Origin: Clostridia bacterium
GTDB taxonomy: Bacteria > Bacillota > Clostridia > Oscillospirales > CAG-272
Assembly: GCA_017532045.1 (NCBI GenBank)
Contig: JAFXJW010000026.1
Location: 1-38,013 of the forward strand
DNA: 38,013 nucleotides
Direction: 5' to 3'
The translations under genes and the position numbers were made by a program. The number at the start of each line of letters is the position of its first letter. The first letter of the stretch is position 1. Below, one piece after another: positions 2,827 through 38,013 of the stretch. The notes under the pieces were generated by a model. That model was not told the origin of the DNA. It searched no databases and saw nothing but the letters and a program-made list of their open reading frames with translations.

Positions 2827-3606
2827 ATGTCCAAAAAAACAGCTAACCGCATCCGGCGAATATACGGCGTAGCGCTCTCGCTTGCGCTGATCGTGACCGG
2901 TATTCTGCTCATGATATCCTGCGTGAATATATATAAGAGCGGCCCACGCCCCTTCACACCCGAGAGCATTTCCGCCGCCTTTTCCAAAATTGCGGTGTTC
3001 GTGTGGGTGACCTGCGGCGCTTTGGCCGTGGGAATCATTCTGGCTCTCGTCTGCCCCGCCGAGCAGGGAAAGCCCCGTGTTATCAAGCATAAGAAAATCA
3101 CTCTGACCCGCCTGCAGAGCCGCCTCGATACCCGCCTCTGCGACGCCGATAGGCTGGCTCTGATCCGCAAGGAGGAGAAGCTGCGTATCTTCCTGCGCAT
3201 TGTCGCGACTCTTTCCTGCGTGGCGGTAGCTGCTCCCGCGGTGGTGTATGCCCTTAATTTTGATCACTTCAGCCTGGATTACGATGCCAGCGTGATTGCC
3301 GCTTGCCTGTGGCTCATTCCCGCCACCCTGATTTGTATGGGTATTTGTTTAGCCCTCGTGTATCTGGAGGAGGCCAGTCTGGATCGCCAGATCGGACACG
3401 TCAAGTCGGCGCTTGCTGAGGTCGGCGCTTCGACTCCCCATGACGAGCCTGCCAAGCCCTCTCGCTCCAAGCTGATTTGGGGCATTCGAGTGGCTGTCGC
3501 CGTCGTTGCGGTTGCCTTCGTCGTCTTGGGTGTGCGCAACGGCGGTATGGCGGACGTTCTCTCGAAGGCCATCAACATCTGCACCGAGTGCATCGGTCTT
3601 GGTTAA
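2827..3606 (+). CDS. Multi-pass membrane protein ending in a CD1871A-family CXXC motif
   Basis: AAGGAAG RBS; about 5 hydrophobic segments; C-terminus GGMADVLSKAINICTECIGLG; directly precedes a 4Fe-4S membrane protein, the usual context of this motif. Confidence 0.8.
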   Translation: MSKKTANRIRRIYGVALSLALIVTGILLMISCVNIYKSGPRPFTPESISAAFSKIAVFVWVTCGALAVGIILALVCPAEQGKPRVIKHKKITLTRLQSRLDTRLCDADRLALIRKEEKLRIFLRIVATLSCVAVAAPAVVYALNFDHFSLDYDASVIAACLWLIPATLICMGICLALVYLEEASLDRQIGHVKSALAEVGASTPHDEPAKPSRSKLIWGIRVAVAVVAVAFVVLGVRNGGMADVLSKAINICTECIGLG

Positions 3607-3617
3607 GGGGGCAGGGT

Positions 3618-5207
3618 ATGAAAAAAATTCTTGGCTGGTTCAAGGCCCACAGACCTACGAAAAGGCGGCTGATCCAGGTGTACGCCGCCCTGCTCTTCAA
3701 CGCCAACCTGAAAGGCTATATCACGGGCGACATCTACAAGGGGCCCTTGAAGAACGCCTGTACCCCCGGCCTCAATTGCTACTCCTGCCCCGGCGCATCG
3801 GGGGCTTGCCCTCTCGGTGCGCTTCAGAACGCCCTCTCCTCCAGCGGCAAAACCGCACCCTACTACGTCTTTGGCATCATCATGCTGTACGGACTCATGT
3901 TCGGACGCTGGATCTGCGGATTCCTCTGCCCCTTTGGGTTGATTCAGGAGCTTTTCCATAAGATCCCCACGCCCAAGCTCCAAAAGGGAAGGATCACCCG
4001 CATTCTCTCCTGCTTCAAATACGTTATTCTGGTATTTTTCGTCATCATTCTTCCGCTGGCGTATGCCTGCCGAAATTTCCCTCTTCCCGGCTTCTGTAAG
4101 TACATATGCCCCGCAGGAACCCTGGAGGGGGCTATGGGATTGCTCTCCAACAGCGTAAACGAAAGCTACCTCCGCATGCTGGGCCCCCTGTTCACGTGGA
4201 AGTTCCTCCTTATGGTTTCCATCCTCGTGGCCTGCGTGTTTATCTTCCGCTTCTTCTGCCGCTTCCTCTGCCCTCTGGGTGCTCTGTATGGACTCTTCAA
4301 TAGGATCTCCCTCGTGGGTGTCAAGCTTGACCGGGCGGGTTGTACGGATTGCGGACTCTGTGTAGGTACATGCAAAATGGATATCAAGCGCGTGGGTGAT
4401 GCCGAGTGCATCAACTGCGGCGAGTGCATTGGCGTCTGTCCCACTAAGGCCATTAGCTGGAAGGGATCGAAGCTATTCCTGGCTCCCAATGCCATCGACG
4501 GCGAGAGTGAGGGGGCAGACACCCACCGAGAGAATGTCCAAAAGGCCAAGAAACGCCACACCGCTGTCAAGGTGACGGTGGGAGTGCTCATGGCGGCTCT
4601 CCTCGGCGCGGCGCTGATCTACTACAATTTCATCGACGGACGGGAGGACGAGCCTATCCTGCTTCCCCCCGAAACCACCGAAGCCACCGAAGCTACCACC
4701 TCCGCCGACGACCCCGAAACCCAGCCGGATCAGCCCGAGAAGCCCCCCGTGGGAACGGCGGTGGGCAACACCTGCCCCGCCATCGTCCTTGACCTGATCG
4801 GCAGTGACGCCAGGTTCAGCGTGGAGGAAAATGCGGTGGCAGGGAAGGTCACGGTGCTGAATTTCTGGTTCACCACCTGCGGCCCTTGTCTGCACGAGCT
4901 GCCTTATTTCTATCAGGTAGCCGGGGATTACGCCGAACAGGTGTCTGTGGTGGCGGTACATATCGAGCAGCGGAACGTGGACGTAGCCGACTTTATTCAG
5001 AATGATTCGGGACACCCCGAATGGGGCGACGGAACCATGCTCATCGGCTGGGACACCTCTTCCTATTGTTTGAAGCTGTTCAACATCCAGGCCTGTCCCG
5101 TTACCGTGGTGATCAATGCAGACGGCGTGATCACCGATTACTTCGTCGGTGGACTCATGCAAGACGAGCTTGTCGCCGCCGTGGAAAAGGCCTTGGGGGA
5201 TGAGTAA
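3618..5207 (+). CDS. NapH/MauN-like membrane 4Fe-4S binding protein fused to a C-terminal TlpA-like thioredoxin domain
   Basis: NCYSCP..CPLG, CGFLCPFG, CKYICP, CRFLCPLG motifs; CTDCGLCVGTC and CINCGECIGVCP ferredoxin motifs; TM helix, T/E/P linker, then VLNFWFTTCGPCLHELP and PVTVVIN. Confidence 0.88.
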   Translation: MKKILGWFKAHRPTKRRLIQVYAALLFNANLKGYITGDIYKGPLKNACTPGLNCYSCPGASGACPLGALQNALSSSGKTAPYYVFGIIMLYGLMFGRWICGFLCPFGLIQELFHKIPTPKLQKGRITRILSCFKYVILVFFVIILPLAYACRNFPLPGFCKYICPAGTLEGAMGLLSNSVNESYLRMLGPLFTWKFLLMVSILVACVFIFRFFCRFLCPLGALYGLFNRISLVGVKLDRAGCTDCGLCVGTCKMDIKRVGDAECINCGECIGVCPTKAISWKGSKLFLAPNAIDGESEGADTHRENVQKAKKRHTAVKVTVGVLMAALLGAALIYYNFIDGREDEPILLPPETTEATEATTSADDPETQPDQPEKPPVGTAVGNTCPAIVLDLIGSDARFSVEENAVAGKVTVLNFWFTTCGPCLHELPYFYQVAGDYAEQVSVVAVHIEQRNVDVADFIQNDSGHPEWGDGTMLIGWDTSSYCLKLFNIQACPVTVVINADGVITDYFVGGLMQDELVAAVEKALGDE

Positions 5208-6105: not shown

Positions 6106-7455
6106 ATGAATATGAATACCATTCAGACTCTTCTCAGCATTGCCGTCTGCCTGTTTGCGGGACTCATGATGACCCGTGTTCTCAAGCGGCTTCACCTCCC
6201 CGACGTGACCGCGTACCTCATTGCCGGTGTGGTCATCGGTACATATTGCATTGGTCGTTTTGTCGTTGGAGGCTTCAGCTTTGGCTTCAACAATGAGGTC
6301 TCCCCCGTCGGCAGCTTCACCATCATCTCGGACATCGCCCTGGGCTTCATCGCCTTTGATATCGGTAACGAGTTCCGTGTGAAGGATCTGAGGCACACGG
6401 GAAAGCAGGCTACCGTCATCGGCATCGTTCAGGCCGTGACCGCTACTCTGGTGGTGGATGCCGTCCTGGTGGGCGTGCACTTCCTGCTCATCGCTTTGAC
6501 GGGCGTGGACTATCTCCCCCTGCCCGCCTGCATCCTGCTGGGCGCTATCGCATCGGCGACTGCCCCCGCCGCTACCCTCATGGTGGTGCGCCAGTACAAG
6601 GCCAAGGGCCCTCTGACCGATCTCCTGCTCCCCATCGTCGCTCTGGACGATGCCGTGGGACTGATCCTCTTTGCCGTGTCCATGGGTGTGGCCAAGGCGC
6701 TTCACGGCGGCGAGCTGAGCGTGGTCTCGGTGCTGGTTGAGCCCATGCTGGAGATTCTGCTGTCCCTTCTTTTGGGCGCTGTGCTGGGCTTCTTTTTGTC
6801 CTTTGTGGAGCGGGCCTTCCACTCCAACTCCAACCGCCTCGCCCTTATGATCACCTTTGTGTTTCTGACGGTGGCGCTGGCCATGCTGCATTTCGAGATC
6901 AACGGCGTACACATCGGCTTTTCCTCCCTGCTCACCTGTATGATGCTGGGCACCGTATTCTGCAACGTCTGTAAGACCTCCGAGGAAATGATGCAGAGAA
7001 CCGAGAAGTGGACCAAGCCTCTGTTCGTTTTGTTCTTCGTGATCAGCGGCGCAAGTCTGGATCTGACCGTCTTTAAAGAGCCCGTATTCATCCTGATCGG
7101 TGTGATCTACATCCTGTTCCGCTCCGTGGGTAAGATCGTAGGCTCCTTCAGCAGCGCCAAGCTCATGAGGTGCGACGAGAATACCGTGAGGTATTTGGGT
7201 GTCACCCTCCTGCCTCAGGCGGGCGTCGCCTTGGGCATGGTTTCTACCGTAGGCGCTGACAGCGTGTTCGGCGGCAGTACCATTGGCAGTACCGTGCGTT
7301 TTGTCGTCCTCTTCGGCGTTCTGATCTACGAGATCCTTGGCCCTATGATGACCAAGTGGGCGCTGACCAAGGCCGGGGACATCACCGAGAAGCCCCAAGG
7401 CATTTCTGCCCGTGTCATTGACCCCCATCATCTGGAGAAGGAAGGCAATTCCTGA
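6106..7455 (+). CDS. Cation:proton antiporter (Na+/K+:H+ exchanger family)
   Basis: AAGGAG RBS; about 12-13 TM segments; LGAIASATAPAATL, VALDDAVG, FFVISGASL and LLPQAGVALG motifs. Confidence 0.9.
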   Translation: MNMNTIQTLLSIAVCLFAGLMMTRVLKRLHLPDVTAYLIAGVVIGTYCIGRFVVGGFSFGFNNEVSPVGSFTIISDIALGFIAFDIGNEFRVKDLRHTGKQATVIGIVQAVTATLVVDAVLVGVHFLLIALTGVDYLPLPACILLGAIASATAPAATLMVVRQYKAKGPLTDLLLPIVALDDAVGLILFAVSMGVAKALHGGELSVVSVLVEPMLEILLSLLLGAVLGFFLSFVERAFHSNSNRLALMITFVFLTVALAMLHFEINGVHIGFSSLLTCMMLGTVFCNVCKTSEEMMQRTEKWTKPLFVLFFVISGASLDLTVFKEPVFILIGVIYILFRSVGKIVGSFSSAKLMRCDENTVRYLGVTLLPQAGVALGMVSTVGADSVFGGSTIGSTVRFVVLFGVLIYEILGPMMTKWALTKAGDITEKPQGISARVIDPHHLEKEGNS

Positions 7456-7470
7456 TTCCGTTCTATAACC

Positions 7471-7501
7471 AAAGGGCTATCCCGTGGGGATAGCCCTTTT
7501 C
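7471..7501. terminator. Bidirectional terminator between convergent genes
   Basis: aaagggctatccc-gtg-gggatagccctttt. Confidence 0.85.
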
Positions 7502-7521
7502 TGTATTGGTATAGGGGAGTG

Positions 7522-8469
7522 TCACTCCAAAAGGATCTTGTCCCACAGCATTCTGCGCCCTGCCAGCGCCGCACCACGCTCGGCCATGGTCAGGCCACCC
7601 TCTGCATGGCTGATCAGAATATCCACCCCATCGGGGAGAAGGGGCGTGTAAAACGAGCCGTCGGGCAGAATGCTCCGCGCATCCTCCACGTAGATGAGAT
7701 CGGGGCACAGAAAACGGCATAAGTCGGTGAGGAATACCGCCGTACTGCGGCGGATTCCCTCGGCGGAGGATTCTGTCGAGCGGAGGGTGCGGAGCAGAGT
7801 GTGGGTCAGACTGTCTCCGAGGGAGGAGGGATGCCATAGCCCCTCCCCGTCCTTGAGGAGCAGACAGGCGTGCGTCCCCTCTCCAATCGATGCAAAGAGC
7901 AGGGACGCGGCCGCCCGGGGCAGCTTTCTGCTCTTGACCGCCCAAGCCACCGCCTCTCCTTGTCCCGTGACGGCCAAAGGGGATTTGCCAAGGGCGTGGG
8001 TGAATACGTCCCGTAAAATCTTAGAGGGAAGCGTCCCGTCTGTCAAAAGAACAGGAGCGGTCACAGCCCCCTCGCCACACCCTCGCAGAAGGGTCAGGAG
8101 GCGGCGGGCAAGGAGTCGGGCCGATTCCTCGGGTGGGGAGGCGGGGTACAGCTCCACCGTGGCCGAGGCCATGGGGGAAAGCTCCATGTCCAGTACACGG
8201 ACGGCGCCGTATTCACGGGTTACCGTCAGGACGGGGAGCAGGAGGTTTTTGGCAGGGGAAAGAACACGGCAAGGACGGCCGCTGTCGGGGGATATACCCG
8301 TCTCGGAGCGGAGAATACCGTGGGACAGACAGGCGGAGATGGCACGGGTAACCGTAGACTGTCCCAAGCCAGTGGCCTCGGCCAGCGCCTTGCCGGTGGT
8401 GGGGAGGGATGCCTCCAGCGCATCCAGAATGCGGGTGAGGGCGGCGGGGGATATAGAAGGGTACGGCAT
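7522..8469 (-). CDS. Winged-helix protein with degenerate ROK-like architecture
   Basis: GGGAGG RBS before ATG 8469; TGKALAEATGLGQSTVTRAISACL..G..SGRP N-terminal wHTH; later ASIGEG and FLCPDLIYV segments resemble the ROK fold. Confidence 0.65.
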   Translation of the reverse strand: MPYPSISPAALTRILDALEASLPTTGKALAEATGLGQSTVTRAISACLSHGILRSETGISPDSGRPCRVLSPAKNLLLPVLTVTREYGAVRVLDMELSPMASATVELYPASPPEESARLLARRLLTLLRGCGEGAVTAPVLLTDGTLPSKILRDVFTHALGKSPLAVTGQGEAVAWAVKSRKLPRAAASLLFASIGEGTHACLLLKDGEGLWHPSSLGDSLTHTLLRTLRSTESSAEGIRRSTAVFLTDLCRFLCPDLIYVEDARSILPDGSFYTPLLPDGVDILISHAEGGLTMAERGAALAGRRMLWDKILLE

Positions 8470-8492
8470 AGTGACCTCCCGATGAAAAAGTA

Positions 8493-35559: not shown

Positions 35560-35918
35560 CAAAAATCCACCGCTTGAAGCGGTGGAAAAGAAATCTTTAG
35601 ATTCAAGAAATAGACGTCCTATGGTATAATGATGAAGGTTCGCCAACCGCATCAAAAATAACACATAGGAGGAATGTCATGAAGGACACTAATAGTTTAT
35701 CACATTCTAAATGGAATTGCAAGTACCATATCGTATTTGCTCCAAAATATCGTCCACAGGTAATATATGGGAAAATCAAGGCGGATATTGGAAAGATACT
35801 GCGACAACTATGCGAAATGAAGGGAGTAGAGATCATAGAGGCGGAAGCATGTCCAGATCATATTCATATGCTGGTAAGTATTCCCCCGCACTTGAGCGTT
35901 GTCGCATTCATGGGGTAC
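35560..35918 (+). mobile_element. IS200-family element, left end plus 5' part of tnpA
   Basis: Left-end hairpin tccaccgctt-g-aagcggtgga (35566-35586), TGGTATAAT promoter element, GGTTCGCCAACC leader, then tnpA. Confidence 0.85.
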
Positions 35919-35948
35919 CATCATATATGTTATACCACGATTTTGTGA
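35679..35948 (+). pseudogene. tnpA: Truncated IS200/IS605 Y1 transposase
   Basis: SLSHSKWNCKYHIVFAPKYR, CPDHIHML (HUH), SIPP..FMGY then loss of homology; expected LKGKS..FW..GY and catalytic Tyr helix are absent. Confidence 0.9.
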
Positions 35949-36131: not shown

Positions 36132-36479
36132 ATGGAACTTTCTCAACGTGAATTTTTACGAAAACTTGGAAAAGAAATATGCGCGGCACGCAAACGGCTG
36201 AATATGAGTCAGGAAGAGCTTGCGGAAAAAGCCGATTTGTCGGTAACATATATTAGTAAGATAGAGTGTGGGCATAGAAATTTCAGTGTTCATACAATGG
36301 CAAAAATAGCGCAAGTATTAGAACTCCCACAATACAAAATGATAGAAGTTACTTGTTGTGAAAAATATAATGAACTACTCAAAGAAATATTCAAGGAATA
36401 TTCCTTCGATGAAATAGAGGATATTGCTCAAATACTTCAATCCATTAATAGGTTGATTGTAAAAAGACCGCTTAAATAA
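36132..36479 (+). CDS. XRE-family helix-turn-helix regulator
   Basis: GAGGT RBS; LGKEI...RKRLNMSQEELAEKADLSVTYISKIECG.RN.S; AT-rich codon usage. Confidence 0.92.
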   Translation: MELSQREFLRKLGKEICAARKRLNMSQEELAEKADLSVTYISKIECGHRNFSVHTMAKIAQVLELPQYKMIEVTCCEKYNELLKEIFKEYSFDEIEDIAQILQSINRLIVKRPLK

Positions 36480-36522: not shown

Positions 36523-36696
36523 GCATACTTGCCATATCGTTCAAGCACCAGCCACATCGTTTATTTCAAGTTCCCGCTATTTATTATAAAATATTATTTT
36601 GTGGTATAAAACTCTGTCTGTATCTGCGGTTTTAGGATTATTCGCAAATATTTGGTAAAATAATAATACCAATACCTAACGCAAGGAGAGTGTTTT

Positions 36697-37536
36697 ATGA
36701 AAAGGATTTTAGAACCAAAGAAAATGCAGGAATTTGAATTCCATTTAAGAAACGAGGAAAGGAGCGCGGCAACGATTGAAAAATATATGCGAGACGTAAG
36801 AGGCTTTGCGGCATTTGTCGGTGACGCGGAAATCGACAAGCAGAAAGTGCTTGACTACAAAAGTAAACTTGGCGAGACTTATGCGGTGGCAAGCGCAAAT
36901 TCTATGCTCGCGGCAATGAACTGCTTTCTTCGCTTCTGCGGTTGGCACGATCTGTGCGTCAAACAGTTCAAAATGCAAAGAGAAGTTTACTGCTCGGAGG
37001 AAAAGGAACTGACCCGTGCGGAATATATTCGGTTGCTTGATGCTGCAAATGCCAAGCACAATGAACGGCTCAATCTGATTATCCAGACGATCTGCGGAAC
37101 GGGGATCCGTGTAAGTGAGCTGCAATATATCACCGTGGAAGCGTTACACAACGGTGAGGCAATCGTAAACTGTAAAGGCAAGAACAGACGTGTGTTTATC
37201 GTCCCCGAGCTAAAGAAAAAACTGCTCCGTTACGTGAAGGAGCAGGGAATTAGTGCCGGAACGGTATTCGTTACAAGGGGCGGAAAGCCCATAAGCAGGC
37301 ACAGCATTTGGAAGGATATGAAGGCACTGTGCGAACAGGCGAACGTATCGCCGAGCAAGGTCTTTCCTCACAATCTTCGCCACCTATTCGCCCGCACCTT
37401 TTACGGCATTGAAAAGGATATTGCCAAGCTCGCAGATATACTCGGACACGCAAGCATCAATACGACACGCATTTATATCGTTACAACCGGCGCGGAACAC
37501 AAGCGCAAGATGGAGCATATGAGGCTCATCATATAA
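36697..37536 (+). CDS. Tyrosine recombinase (short, Xer/FimB-like, no arm-binding domain)
   Basis: AAGGAG RBS; SAM-like N-terminus (ERSAATIEKY.RD); intact catalytic set TGIRVSEL, KGK, HNLRH, LGH, TTRIY. Confidence 0.95.
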   Translation: MKRILEPKKMQEFEFHLRNEERSAATIEKYMRDVRGFAAFVGDAEIDKQKVLDYKSKLGETYAVASANSMLAAMNCFLRFCGWHDLCVKQFKMQREVYCSEEKELTRAEYIRLLDAANAKHNERLNLIIQTICGTGIRVSELQYITVEALHNGEAIVNCKGKNRRVFIVPELKKKLLRYVKEQGISAGTVFVTRGGKPISRHSIWKDMKALCEQANVSPSKVFPHNLRHLFARTFYGIEKDIAKLADILGHASINTTRIYIVTTGAEHKRKMEHMRLII

Positions 37537-37576
37537 AAGAAAAAATCCCGATGCGAACACACCGAGACCGACAGCA

Positions 37577-37656
37577 ACATAACGAGAGTTATGTCGCCTT
37601 CAAAATAACATAACGAGAGTTATGTCGCCTTCAAAATAACATAACGAGAGTTATGT
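37577..37656 (+). repeat. 31-bp tandem repeat carrying three copies of ACATAAC-gaga-GTTATGT (putative left crossover sites)
   Basis: Identical 18-mers at 37577, 37608 and 37639 separated by an identical 13-mer cgccttcaaaata. Confidence 0.92.
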
Positions 37657-37713
37657 GGTTAAAAAGTGGGAATCGTTACCAAATTCGCTTTGATGCGAAC
37701 AAAAAAGAGCACA

Positions 37714-37768
37714 ACAAAAAGCCTTTCGCCGTAATTTTTTTTAAAAAAAGTACGAAAGGCGTTTTTGT
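37714..37768. terminator. Hairpin inside the putative invertible segment
   Basis: acaaaaa-gcctttcg...cgaaaggc-g-tttttgt with an inner T8/A7 stem. Confidence 0.6.
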
Positions 37769-37833
37769 CACGCAATTTTTTAAATAATATTTAATAAATT
37801 TATCTTGTCAGCCTATAAATTTTGCCAAACCTA

Positions 37834-37862
37834 TTGATTTTTAAGCGTCTTTGTGGTATAAT
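37834..37862 (+). promoter_or_regulatory. sigma-A-type promoter inside the putative invertible segment, pointing right
   Basis: TTGATT-17bp-TATAAT with extended -10 TG. Confidence 0.78.
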
Positions 37863-37900
37863 TCCTATGTATCTGAAAAAAATATCGGATATCTAATATC

Positions 37901-37918
37901 ACATAACTCTCGTTATGT
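37901..37918 (-). repeat. Inverted copy of the 18-bp site (putative right crossover site)
   Basis: ACATAAC-tctc-GTTATGT is the exact reverse complement of ACATAAC-gaga-GTTATGT. Confidence 0.92.
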
Positions 37919-38013
37919 CGCTTTATTAGTCTTAGTGAATTGTACCCGTTCATAAAAAACAGAATCCTACTCAGATAGGAATTTTTTTAGGAAGCCGGTG
38001 TAGCGTTCACTAA

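Follow-up and report, generated by a model that had tools for sequence, protein, structure and literature searches.

Invertible promoters next to a tyrosine recombinase gene are a textbook phenomenon. In E. coli, the promoter of a surface-fibre operon lies on a short invertible element, fimS, which is inverted by FimB or FimE, tyrosine recombinases encoded beside it. In C. difficile, the tyrosine recombinase RecV serves short invertible elements located before surface and signalling genes (cwpV, flgB and pdcB); RecV works in trans on several dissimilar repeats, and cwpV, whose promoter lies outside its element, is regulated through the formation of a terminator. In this work, we analyzed the right end of a 38,013-bp stretch of DNA (the window), which is one entire contig (C149) of a Clostridia bacterium genome bin (176 contigs, 1.68 Mb, 80% complete). 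A gene for an Xer-like tyrosine recombinase is followed there by a short promoter-bearing segment between inverted, dif-like sites. We hold with good confidence that this locus is a phase-variation switch in which the recombinase inverts the 244-bp promoter segment.

The locus has in common with fimS a short promoter-bearing element, an adjoining tyrosine recombinase and, in the relatives described below, an apparent fibre operon. It differs in that the recombinase falls outside the FimB/FimE family, the sites are 18-bp dif-like sequences that are often present in tandem, and terminators lie on both sides. Like the RecV switches it occurs in the class Clostridia, but each switch here has its own recombinase in cis and its promoter inside the element. 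In the vpma genes of Mycoplasma agalactiae and the mba genes of Ureaplasma, inversions bring alternative genes to one fixed promoter, whereas here a promoter cassette would flip between two fixed flanks. Those inversions, which vary surface proteins, are reported to be driven by locus-encoded Xer-like tyrosine recombinases (PMC2268961, PMC3047005). The site architecture matches that of the XerC/XerD-dif system, for which the part of PMC2731167 that deals with dif describes conserved inner arms (CATAA/TTATG) and a 6-bp central region; E. coli K12 dif has CATAA-N6-TTATGT in common with the sites described here. The closest solved relatives of the enzyme are likewise Xer proteins. The locus departs from XerC/XerD-dif in that a single recombinase would act on two inverted sites approximately 240 bp apart beside its own gene, probably with inversion rather than resolution as the outcome, and in that the central region, with 51 hexamers among the loci, is hypervariable.

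Another described relative may be inverton group 139 (33 invertons, 32 of them from Clostridia), reported from a defined human-gut community (PMC11892184, Microbiome 2025). In the parts of that report that concern the group, nearly all members have a tyrosine recombinase ("invertase group 35") within 5 kb, and the two examples have segments of 228 and 206 bp between repeats of approximately 13 and 25 bp, respectively, with shifts in orientation at the read level in culture (PMC11892184). These example sizes are within the range seen here (187–360 bp, median 243), and the strains named in those parts are absent from the loci found here, which are almost all from uncultured metagenome-assembled genomes (MAGs). 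The switch probably belongs to group 139, to which it was likened by size and description rather than by motif. Among the papers listed by a literature search, none links SipW/TasA-type genes to DNA inversion and none describes dif-like invertible promoters; of those listed on TasA, camelysin and SipW, one paper mentions phase variation, once, and the half-motifs of the site led only to dif/Xer and genetic-engineering papers. The existence of a switch at this locus is unsurprising; what the comparative data add is the size of the family, its cargo, a library of sites and insight into assembly.

The recombinase and its candidate sites

The recombinase gene (36697–37536, + strand) encodes a presumed invertase of 279 amino acids, which matched Phage_integrase (PF00589; E 3.4e-26, 92.5 bits against a cut-off of 27.1) and the SAM-like N-terminal domain PF02899. 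The residues that define the tyrosine recombinase superfamily (R-K-H-R-H/W-Y in the catalytic domain) are all present as R138, K162, H225, R228, H251 and Y260, and they are invariant across 16 aligned family members with 49–100% identity. The closest solved structures are XerA (4a8e, 5hxy), XerD (1a0p, 5dcf) and XerH (5jjv). Models for XerA, XerD and XerC also head the NCBIfam ranking, all of them far under their equivalog cut-offs (XerA_Arch, 141.6 bits vs 220; XerD, 115.3 vs 329.6; XerC, 111.4 vs 335.15), as is XerS (59 vs 267). The FimB/FimE subfamily models fell short of their cut-offs as well (NF007370, 29.3 bits vs 221; NF007371, 21.4 vs 222). Judged by these profile scores, the enzyme is an Xer-like tyrosine recombinase that is neither an Xer equivalog nor a Fim-type invertase.

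Three tandem left sites, ACATAAC-GAGA-GTTATGT, lie on the + strand at 37577–37594, 37608–37625 and 37639–37656 with a 31-bp period and the spacer CGCCTTCAAAATA; the first begins 40 bp past the recombinase stop codon. A single right site, ACATAAC-TCTC-GTTATGT at 37901–37918 (+ strand), is their exact reverse complement. An initial annotation, made from the sequence alone, had described a short intact recombinase with a site 40 bp later and an exact reverse-complement copy at 37901–37918, and we found the enzyme and both sites as described; the enzyme has all six catalytic residues. The sites have the form ACATAA-N6-TTATGT, with the central hexamer CGAGAG on the left and its complement on the right. 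The window contains four matches to the site pattern with at most two mismatches; the mean in shuffled sequences was 0.04, and 0 of 100 shuffles reached four. No further occurrence of the site motif was found in the 1.68-Mb genome bin.

When species-representative genomes were scanned at the protein level, 43 related loci were obtained (66–95% identity), all from uncultured gut Clostridia and mostly from ruminants. A site is present 31–102 bp 3' of the recombinase gene in 41 of these, and the remaining two contigs stop at the gene. When the homologous loci were searched for ACATAA-N6-TTATGT pairs, a check put forward in the initial annotation, an inverted partner was found in all 32 with enough flank; the nine loci with a left site only have 280 bp or less after the gene. 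Where the centre is not GAGA, it changes jointly at both sites (AAGA/TCTT, GGGA/TCCC and GGTT/AACC). A second scan used DNA only, with two sites 218–248 bp apart and their centres left free, and returned 64 stretches. The inner sites are exact reverse complements in 61 of the 64, and a recombinase homologue (49–95% identity) adjoins in 57; in four more stretches (L048, L088, L091 and L105) the switch is near the sequence end, and in the contigs of L048 and L088 the last part of a recombinase gene is visible at the contig edge. Three stretches with the usual spacing, two with direct centres (L069 and L106) and one with a palindromic centre (L114), have no recombinase homologue nearby and are possibly relics or chance pairs. 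Lastly, a profile scan of species-representative genomes found more than 591 relatives, members of a barely described family, in ruminant, human, chicken and rabbit gut Clostridia. Among the best 80 of these (59–91% identity), the sequence that follows the gene reaches 330 bp or more in 70, and an inverted repeat, nearly always ACATAA-N6-TTATGT, is found there in 69 of the 70.

With all loci pooled, the central hexamers are reverse-complementary in 129 of 132 distinct switch sequences, and 51 different hexamers occur. Co-variation of the two centres is a prediction of the homology that tyrosine recombinases require between two sites that recombine together. The inner CATAA/TTATG arms and 6-bp central region that characterize dif-type sites were found in the 132 sequences, in which the inner length ranges from 187 to 360 bp (median 243) and the repeats are 18–27 bp long. 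Inverted repeats with matching asymmetric centres around a short segment are what is expected of an inverton. One compact recombinase scaffold with 51 central hexamers is a natural library for probing the orthogonality of switches, and maybe a source of small recombinase/site pairs.

In the mechanism that we propose, the recombinase would bind the dif-like ACATAA-N6-TTATGT sites, and strand exchange at the edges of the asymmetric 6-bp centre, at one left site and at the right site, would invert the intervening 244 bp. The flipping activity of the recombinase, the positions of crossover, the effect on expression and the rate of switching are what we infer from the comparative data. The extra tandem sites would serve as alternative crossover points, and inversions at outer sites would carry the inner copies across. 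Among the relatives of the 43-locus set there are 1–3 left and 1–2 right copies, with up to three right copies in loci from the DNA-only scan, and 15 of the window and 32 relatives have more than two sites (LLLR, LLR or LRR). Read as its reverse complement, the right-side spacer of L032 matches the left spacer of the window exactly and that of L014 nearly so, and a metagenome contig of run X2 continues after 37918 with the reversed left spacer. A reversed spacer on the right side is the expected product of an outer-site inversion. Other run contigs contain arrays of one or two left copies.

Orientation of the segment in relatives

The loci of all relatives were oriented by their recombinase gene. 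In these loci, the segment at 37657–37900 is matched in direct or in reverse orientation, with both flanks in direct orientation and collinear with those of the window. In the 32 relatives, the promoter points away from the recombinase gene in 15, as in the window, and towards it in 15; one has two divergent promoters and one was not assigned a direction. Flipped alleles, whose absence from relatives the initial annotation had taken as a sign against a switch, are hence as frequent as unflipped ones. A 318-bp version of the segment at L012 (4898–5215) has two divergent promoters, one each way, and is not followed by a gene for a TetR-like protein.

Sister loci give the closest comparison. L008 and L009 share 98.6% identity across 1459 bp of left flank and 89% across 2034 bp of right flank, and the 284-bp switch between these flanks is 98.2% identical in reverse. 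Two further sister pairs, L028/L031 and L029/L032, have the same flip pattern. On a maximum-likelihood tree of the recombinase gene with 27 labelled tips (14 and 13 of the two orientations), orientation requires 12 changes; with shuffled labels, 9.2 changes were required on average and 12 at most, so orientation is without phylogenetic signal. Both orientations, as expected of an inverton, were thus found in nature by the counts among relatives, by the sister loci and by the tree. In addition, one contig of the public run X1 goes on after 37657 with the reverse complement of 37889–37899, which corresponds to a flipped left junction. The proposal of an invertible promoter served by the adjacent recombinase gained support from the two orientations between collinear flanks and from the co-varying site centres.

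Eleven of the 43 related loci end 0–280 bp after the recombinase gene, which makes the switch a frequent break point of metagenome assemblies, and the locus would explain why assemblies break there. Breaks of this kind suggest that assemblers struggle at the switch and could be taken to mean that the two orientations are assembly errors; alternatively, a short non-coding segment between 18-bp terminal inverted repeats is reminiscent of a miniature transposable element. We find these explanations hardly credible. There is one copy in the genome bin, and the segment is always in the same place beside the recombinase gene, with centres that vary between loci and agree within each locus. The 18-bp repeats are shorter than the k-mers given in contig titles (k141 and k127), so that reads spanning the junctions were needed for assembly, and both orientations came from several studies and assemblers.

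Promoter, terminators and downstream genes

The segment contains a predicted sigma-70-type promoter, TTGATT-17-TATAAT with a TG extended -10 (37834–37862, + strand), which was found by consensus scan and faces the right site and the contig end. The same promoter occupies the same position of the segment in 31 of 32 relatives, and the -35 and -10 columns show little or no variation in 31 aligned segments; an internal promoter, here a predicted one, is a further property expected of an inverton. Upstream of it lies a bidirectional terminator-like hairpin (37716–37765; arms 37716–37728 and 37753–37765), with an A-run before and a T-run after. Its folds reach -18.9 kcal/mol (z -3.45) on the + strand and -24.9 kcal/mol (z -4.90) on the - strand, and 0 of 200 shuffles were as good. 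The stem core, GCCTTTCG/CGAAAGGC, is almost invariant and, together with the promoter hexamers, forms the best-conserved part of the aligned segments; RNAalifold recovered the central hairpin only, with little co-variation. The 244-bp segment, the hairpin, the promoter and its ON direction towards the right edge all agree with the initial annotation, but the segment is not free of open reading frames as it had claimed: two short frames overlap it, one of 44 amino acids (37653–37787, + strand), which had no Pfam match, and one of 40 amino acids (37831–37953, - strand), which was outside that search.

In the orientation of the window, the promoter would read through the right site into genes past the contig end, and the internal terminator would stop read-through from the recombinase gene. 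In the flipped orientation, the promoter would read towards the recombinase gene and be halted at once by a second, strand-specific terminator, and the internal terminator would adjoin the right site and block read-through into the operon. The strand-specific intrinsic terminator (37532–37569, - strand; hairpin 37569–37544, then a U-run) lies between the recombinase stop codon and the first left site and was listed as a minus-strand terminator by the terminator scan. It folds at -12.6 kcal/mol (z -3.87) on the - strand compared with -1.2 on the + strand. A hairpin and U-run are present at this position in 42 of 42 loci examined, where distant relatives build different stems, and the plus-strand fold is no better than -1.4 kcal/mol in 25 of the 42. 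Because this terminator faces the switch, it should stop transcripts from the flipped promoter short of the recombinase gene, which goes against the earlier suggestion that the flipped promoter fires antisense into that gene.

Two further structures lie in the predicted transcript. The first is a leader hairpin at its 5' end, inside the segment (37869–37892, + strand), so that transcripts of either orientation would share a conserved 5' hairpin. The second is a structured leader beyond the switch (37932–38013, + strand), which consists of a long-range stem (37932–37939/38006–38013), a hairpin (37965–37980) and a U7 run (37982–37988), and which folds in the window at -23.7 kcal/mol (z -3.29); the last base of the contig is also the last of the 3' arm of the long-range stem. 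A hairpin and U-run between the right site and the first downstream gene recur with different stems in 24 relatives. The stems of both structures were named by hand before co-variation was counted, so the counts lean towards them: the 5' hairpin has 82.7% of cells paired compared with 75.6% in shuffles and both-side changes in 14 cells compared with 4.5 expected (0 of 500 shuffles reach this), with G-U pairs on the promoter-sense strand, and the right-flank leader has 84.1% of cells paired and both-side changes in seven pairs compared with 3.3 in shuffles (4 of 500 reach this), with G-U pairs on the + strand. RNAalifold recovered neither stem from the leader alignment, and a search of Rfam with the leaders of L039, L018 and the window end gave no family at E values up to 0.1. 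From its predicted structure, the right-flank leader may be an attenuator, a processing site or a stabilizer, and "ON" may mean attenuated rather than free read-out.

These structures are the basis of an alternative in which the inversion is real and its output is no simple ON/OFF choice; the boxed-in promoter would give orientation-specific short RNAs, or the operon would be run by conditional read-through of the leader together with a TetR-like regulator. This alternative would account for the conserved minus-strand terminator just outside the left sites, the conserved hairpin and U7 approximately 45–70 nt outside the right site within a co-varying long-range stem, the G-U pairs of that stem on the + strand and the 5' hairpin common to both transcripts. 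However, the 3' half of the long-range stem is past the U-run, so its conservation implies transcripts that read through; the right-flank hairpin is weak in the group of the window, with a 5-bp stem; the leader matched no known RNA family; and the gene for the TetR-like protein is absent from four loci (L012, L082, L102 and L104). We regard it as unlikely, and we continue to favor a switch whose promoter drives downstream genes in one orientation.

The genes after the switch were identified in relatives. Their order is a TetR-like protein (204 amino acids; TetR_N, 24.7 bits against a cut-off of 24), a double zinc-ribbon protein (82 amino acids), a membrane-anchored protein of 165 amino acids without family, a SipW-type signal peptidase (TIGR02228, 84.5 bits against 51.85 in L042), a small membrane protein and one to three M73 proteins. 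The last group has matches to Peptidase_M73 (camelysin/TasA; 29.6 and 42.4 bits against 22.5), and the SipW-dependent signal peptide model TIGR04088 gave 23.1 and 25.9 bits against 19; the SipW equivalog NF046067 was under its cut-off in relatives (66.1 and 91.6 bits against 190). From these domain matches, the genes together look like a surface-fibre operon. In the four loci that have no TetR-like gene, the fibre genes follow the switch directly, and in two distant family members, L026 and L043, the switch is located before type IV pilin genes. If the fibre cargo is true, adhesion fibres of these uncultured fibre-degrading and mucus-associated bacteria would be phase variable, which would bear on colonization, phage escape and strain-level heterogeneity in metagenomes. 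In L013, a 460-amino-acid HD + EAL protein (3326–4705) follows the TetR-like gene in place of fibre genes; it resembles the phase-variable c-di-GMP phosphodiesterases of C. difficile.

For the window itself, the last 95 bases share 82–88% identity with the sequence that precedes the TetR-like gene in eight relatives. The contig stops 95 bp past the right site, and the TetR-like, zinc-ribbon and 165-amino-acid proteins of relatives had no tblastn match in the 80%-complete bin. The genes to the right of 38013, to which the initial annotation had pointed, could thus be read in relatives, as TetR-like and SipW/TasA-type genes, and not in this bin.

Several points weigh against a simple ON/OFF promoter switch. 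The chief caveat is that the right-flank hairpin and U7 could terminate much of the "ON" transcription. The identity of the downstream operon in this genome is suggested by flank similarity, and the adjacent recombinase is the probable catalyst of inversion by virtue of its constant adjacency. The evidence for orientation comes from assembled contigs rather than raw reads and hence applies across loci rather than within one clonal population; the flipped junction in run X1 is one contig with an 11-letter overhang, which may stem from a related species in the sample. Joints in the run contigs that skip sequence were ambiguous and were left out of the tally of inversions. In the RNA runs X18–X20, 5–6% of the sampled words were present.

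Genomic setting and spread of the cassette

Upstream of the recombinase gene, a putative promoter with a TGnTATAAA extended -10 (36582–36610, + strand) was placed by inference; the consensus promoter scan did not list it. The 12-nt sequence TTTGTGGTATAA occurs both at 36598–36609 and, in the -10 region of the switch promoter, at 37850–37861, and both promoters may follow a common design. Most relatives are homologous to the window from approximately 36587 onwards. Further 5' lies a gene for an XRE-type helix-turn-helix protein of 115 amino acids (36132–36479, + strand; HTH_3 PF01381, E 1e-14). In tblastn searches, the L010 copy was 87% identical to that of the window and weaker matches were found at 16 other loci; the gene travels with the cassette in some relatives only.

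Homology to the closest cassette-bearing loci (L010, L011, L013 and L022) starts at approximately 35917, which coincides with the end of a truncated IS200-type transposase frame (35679–35948; Y1_Tnp, profile positions 2–71 of 121). This boundary may mark the junction of an island or a chimeric join in the assembly, and from its position at the end of the IS200 frame the cassette seems either to have been acquired horizontally or to have been joined to the contig there. Fourteen of 18 same-genus genomes match window DNA, chiefly at the neighbouring fucose isomerase gene; none of the same-genus matches listed covers the recombinase or the switch, where the sole long match is a genome of another family. 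Near-identical cassettes, and recombinases that are 90–95% identical, occur in MAGs assigned to different families. The first 138 contig bases (4–141) are identical to the ends of two other contigs of the bin, C93 and C94, and form a repeat at contig ends. The last 300 bases have no overlap with any other contig of the bin, and an exact 36-base pattern from the contig end had no match among the metagenome contigs searched. At L010, a second and larger tyrosine integrase (7333–8487, - strand; 383–384 amino acids, Phage_int_SAM domains) is encoded approximately 600 bp past the 165-amino-acid protein gene, which hints that the L010 locus is within an integrative element.

The patchy distribution of the cassette in same-genus genomes, its near-identical copies across families, the truncated transposase at the left boundary and the second integrase near L010 are also what would be seen if the sites were attachment or resolution sites of a mobile island and the recombinase its integrase, with the inverted layout incidental and the two orientations the result of independent insertions. 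We consider this very unlikely. It predicts direct repeats around an island, whereas the sites here are inverted, lie 187–360 bp from each other and are without exception to one side of the recombinase gene; the segment holds a conserved promoter and terminator and no cargo; and sister loci with 98% identical flanks differ by the flip alone.

Mobility and inversion may instead be combined. As a tentative extension of the inversion switch, which we would not put at even odds, we propose an Xer-derived, self-contained cassette that moves between genomes and has been plugged before different surface-fibre operons (TasA-like or type IV pilins) across gut Clostridia. Its private 6-bp centre would act as an address, so that several cassettes could coexist without cross-recombination, and the tandem sites, spaced approximately three helical turns apart, would tune the rate or bias of switching. 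One 32.7-kb contig of a Mediterraneibacter MAG contains two paralogous recombinase-switch cassettes (L072 and L115) that are approximately 80% identical; their centres differ (CTTCTG vs CTGCGG), and their segments are oppositely oriented.

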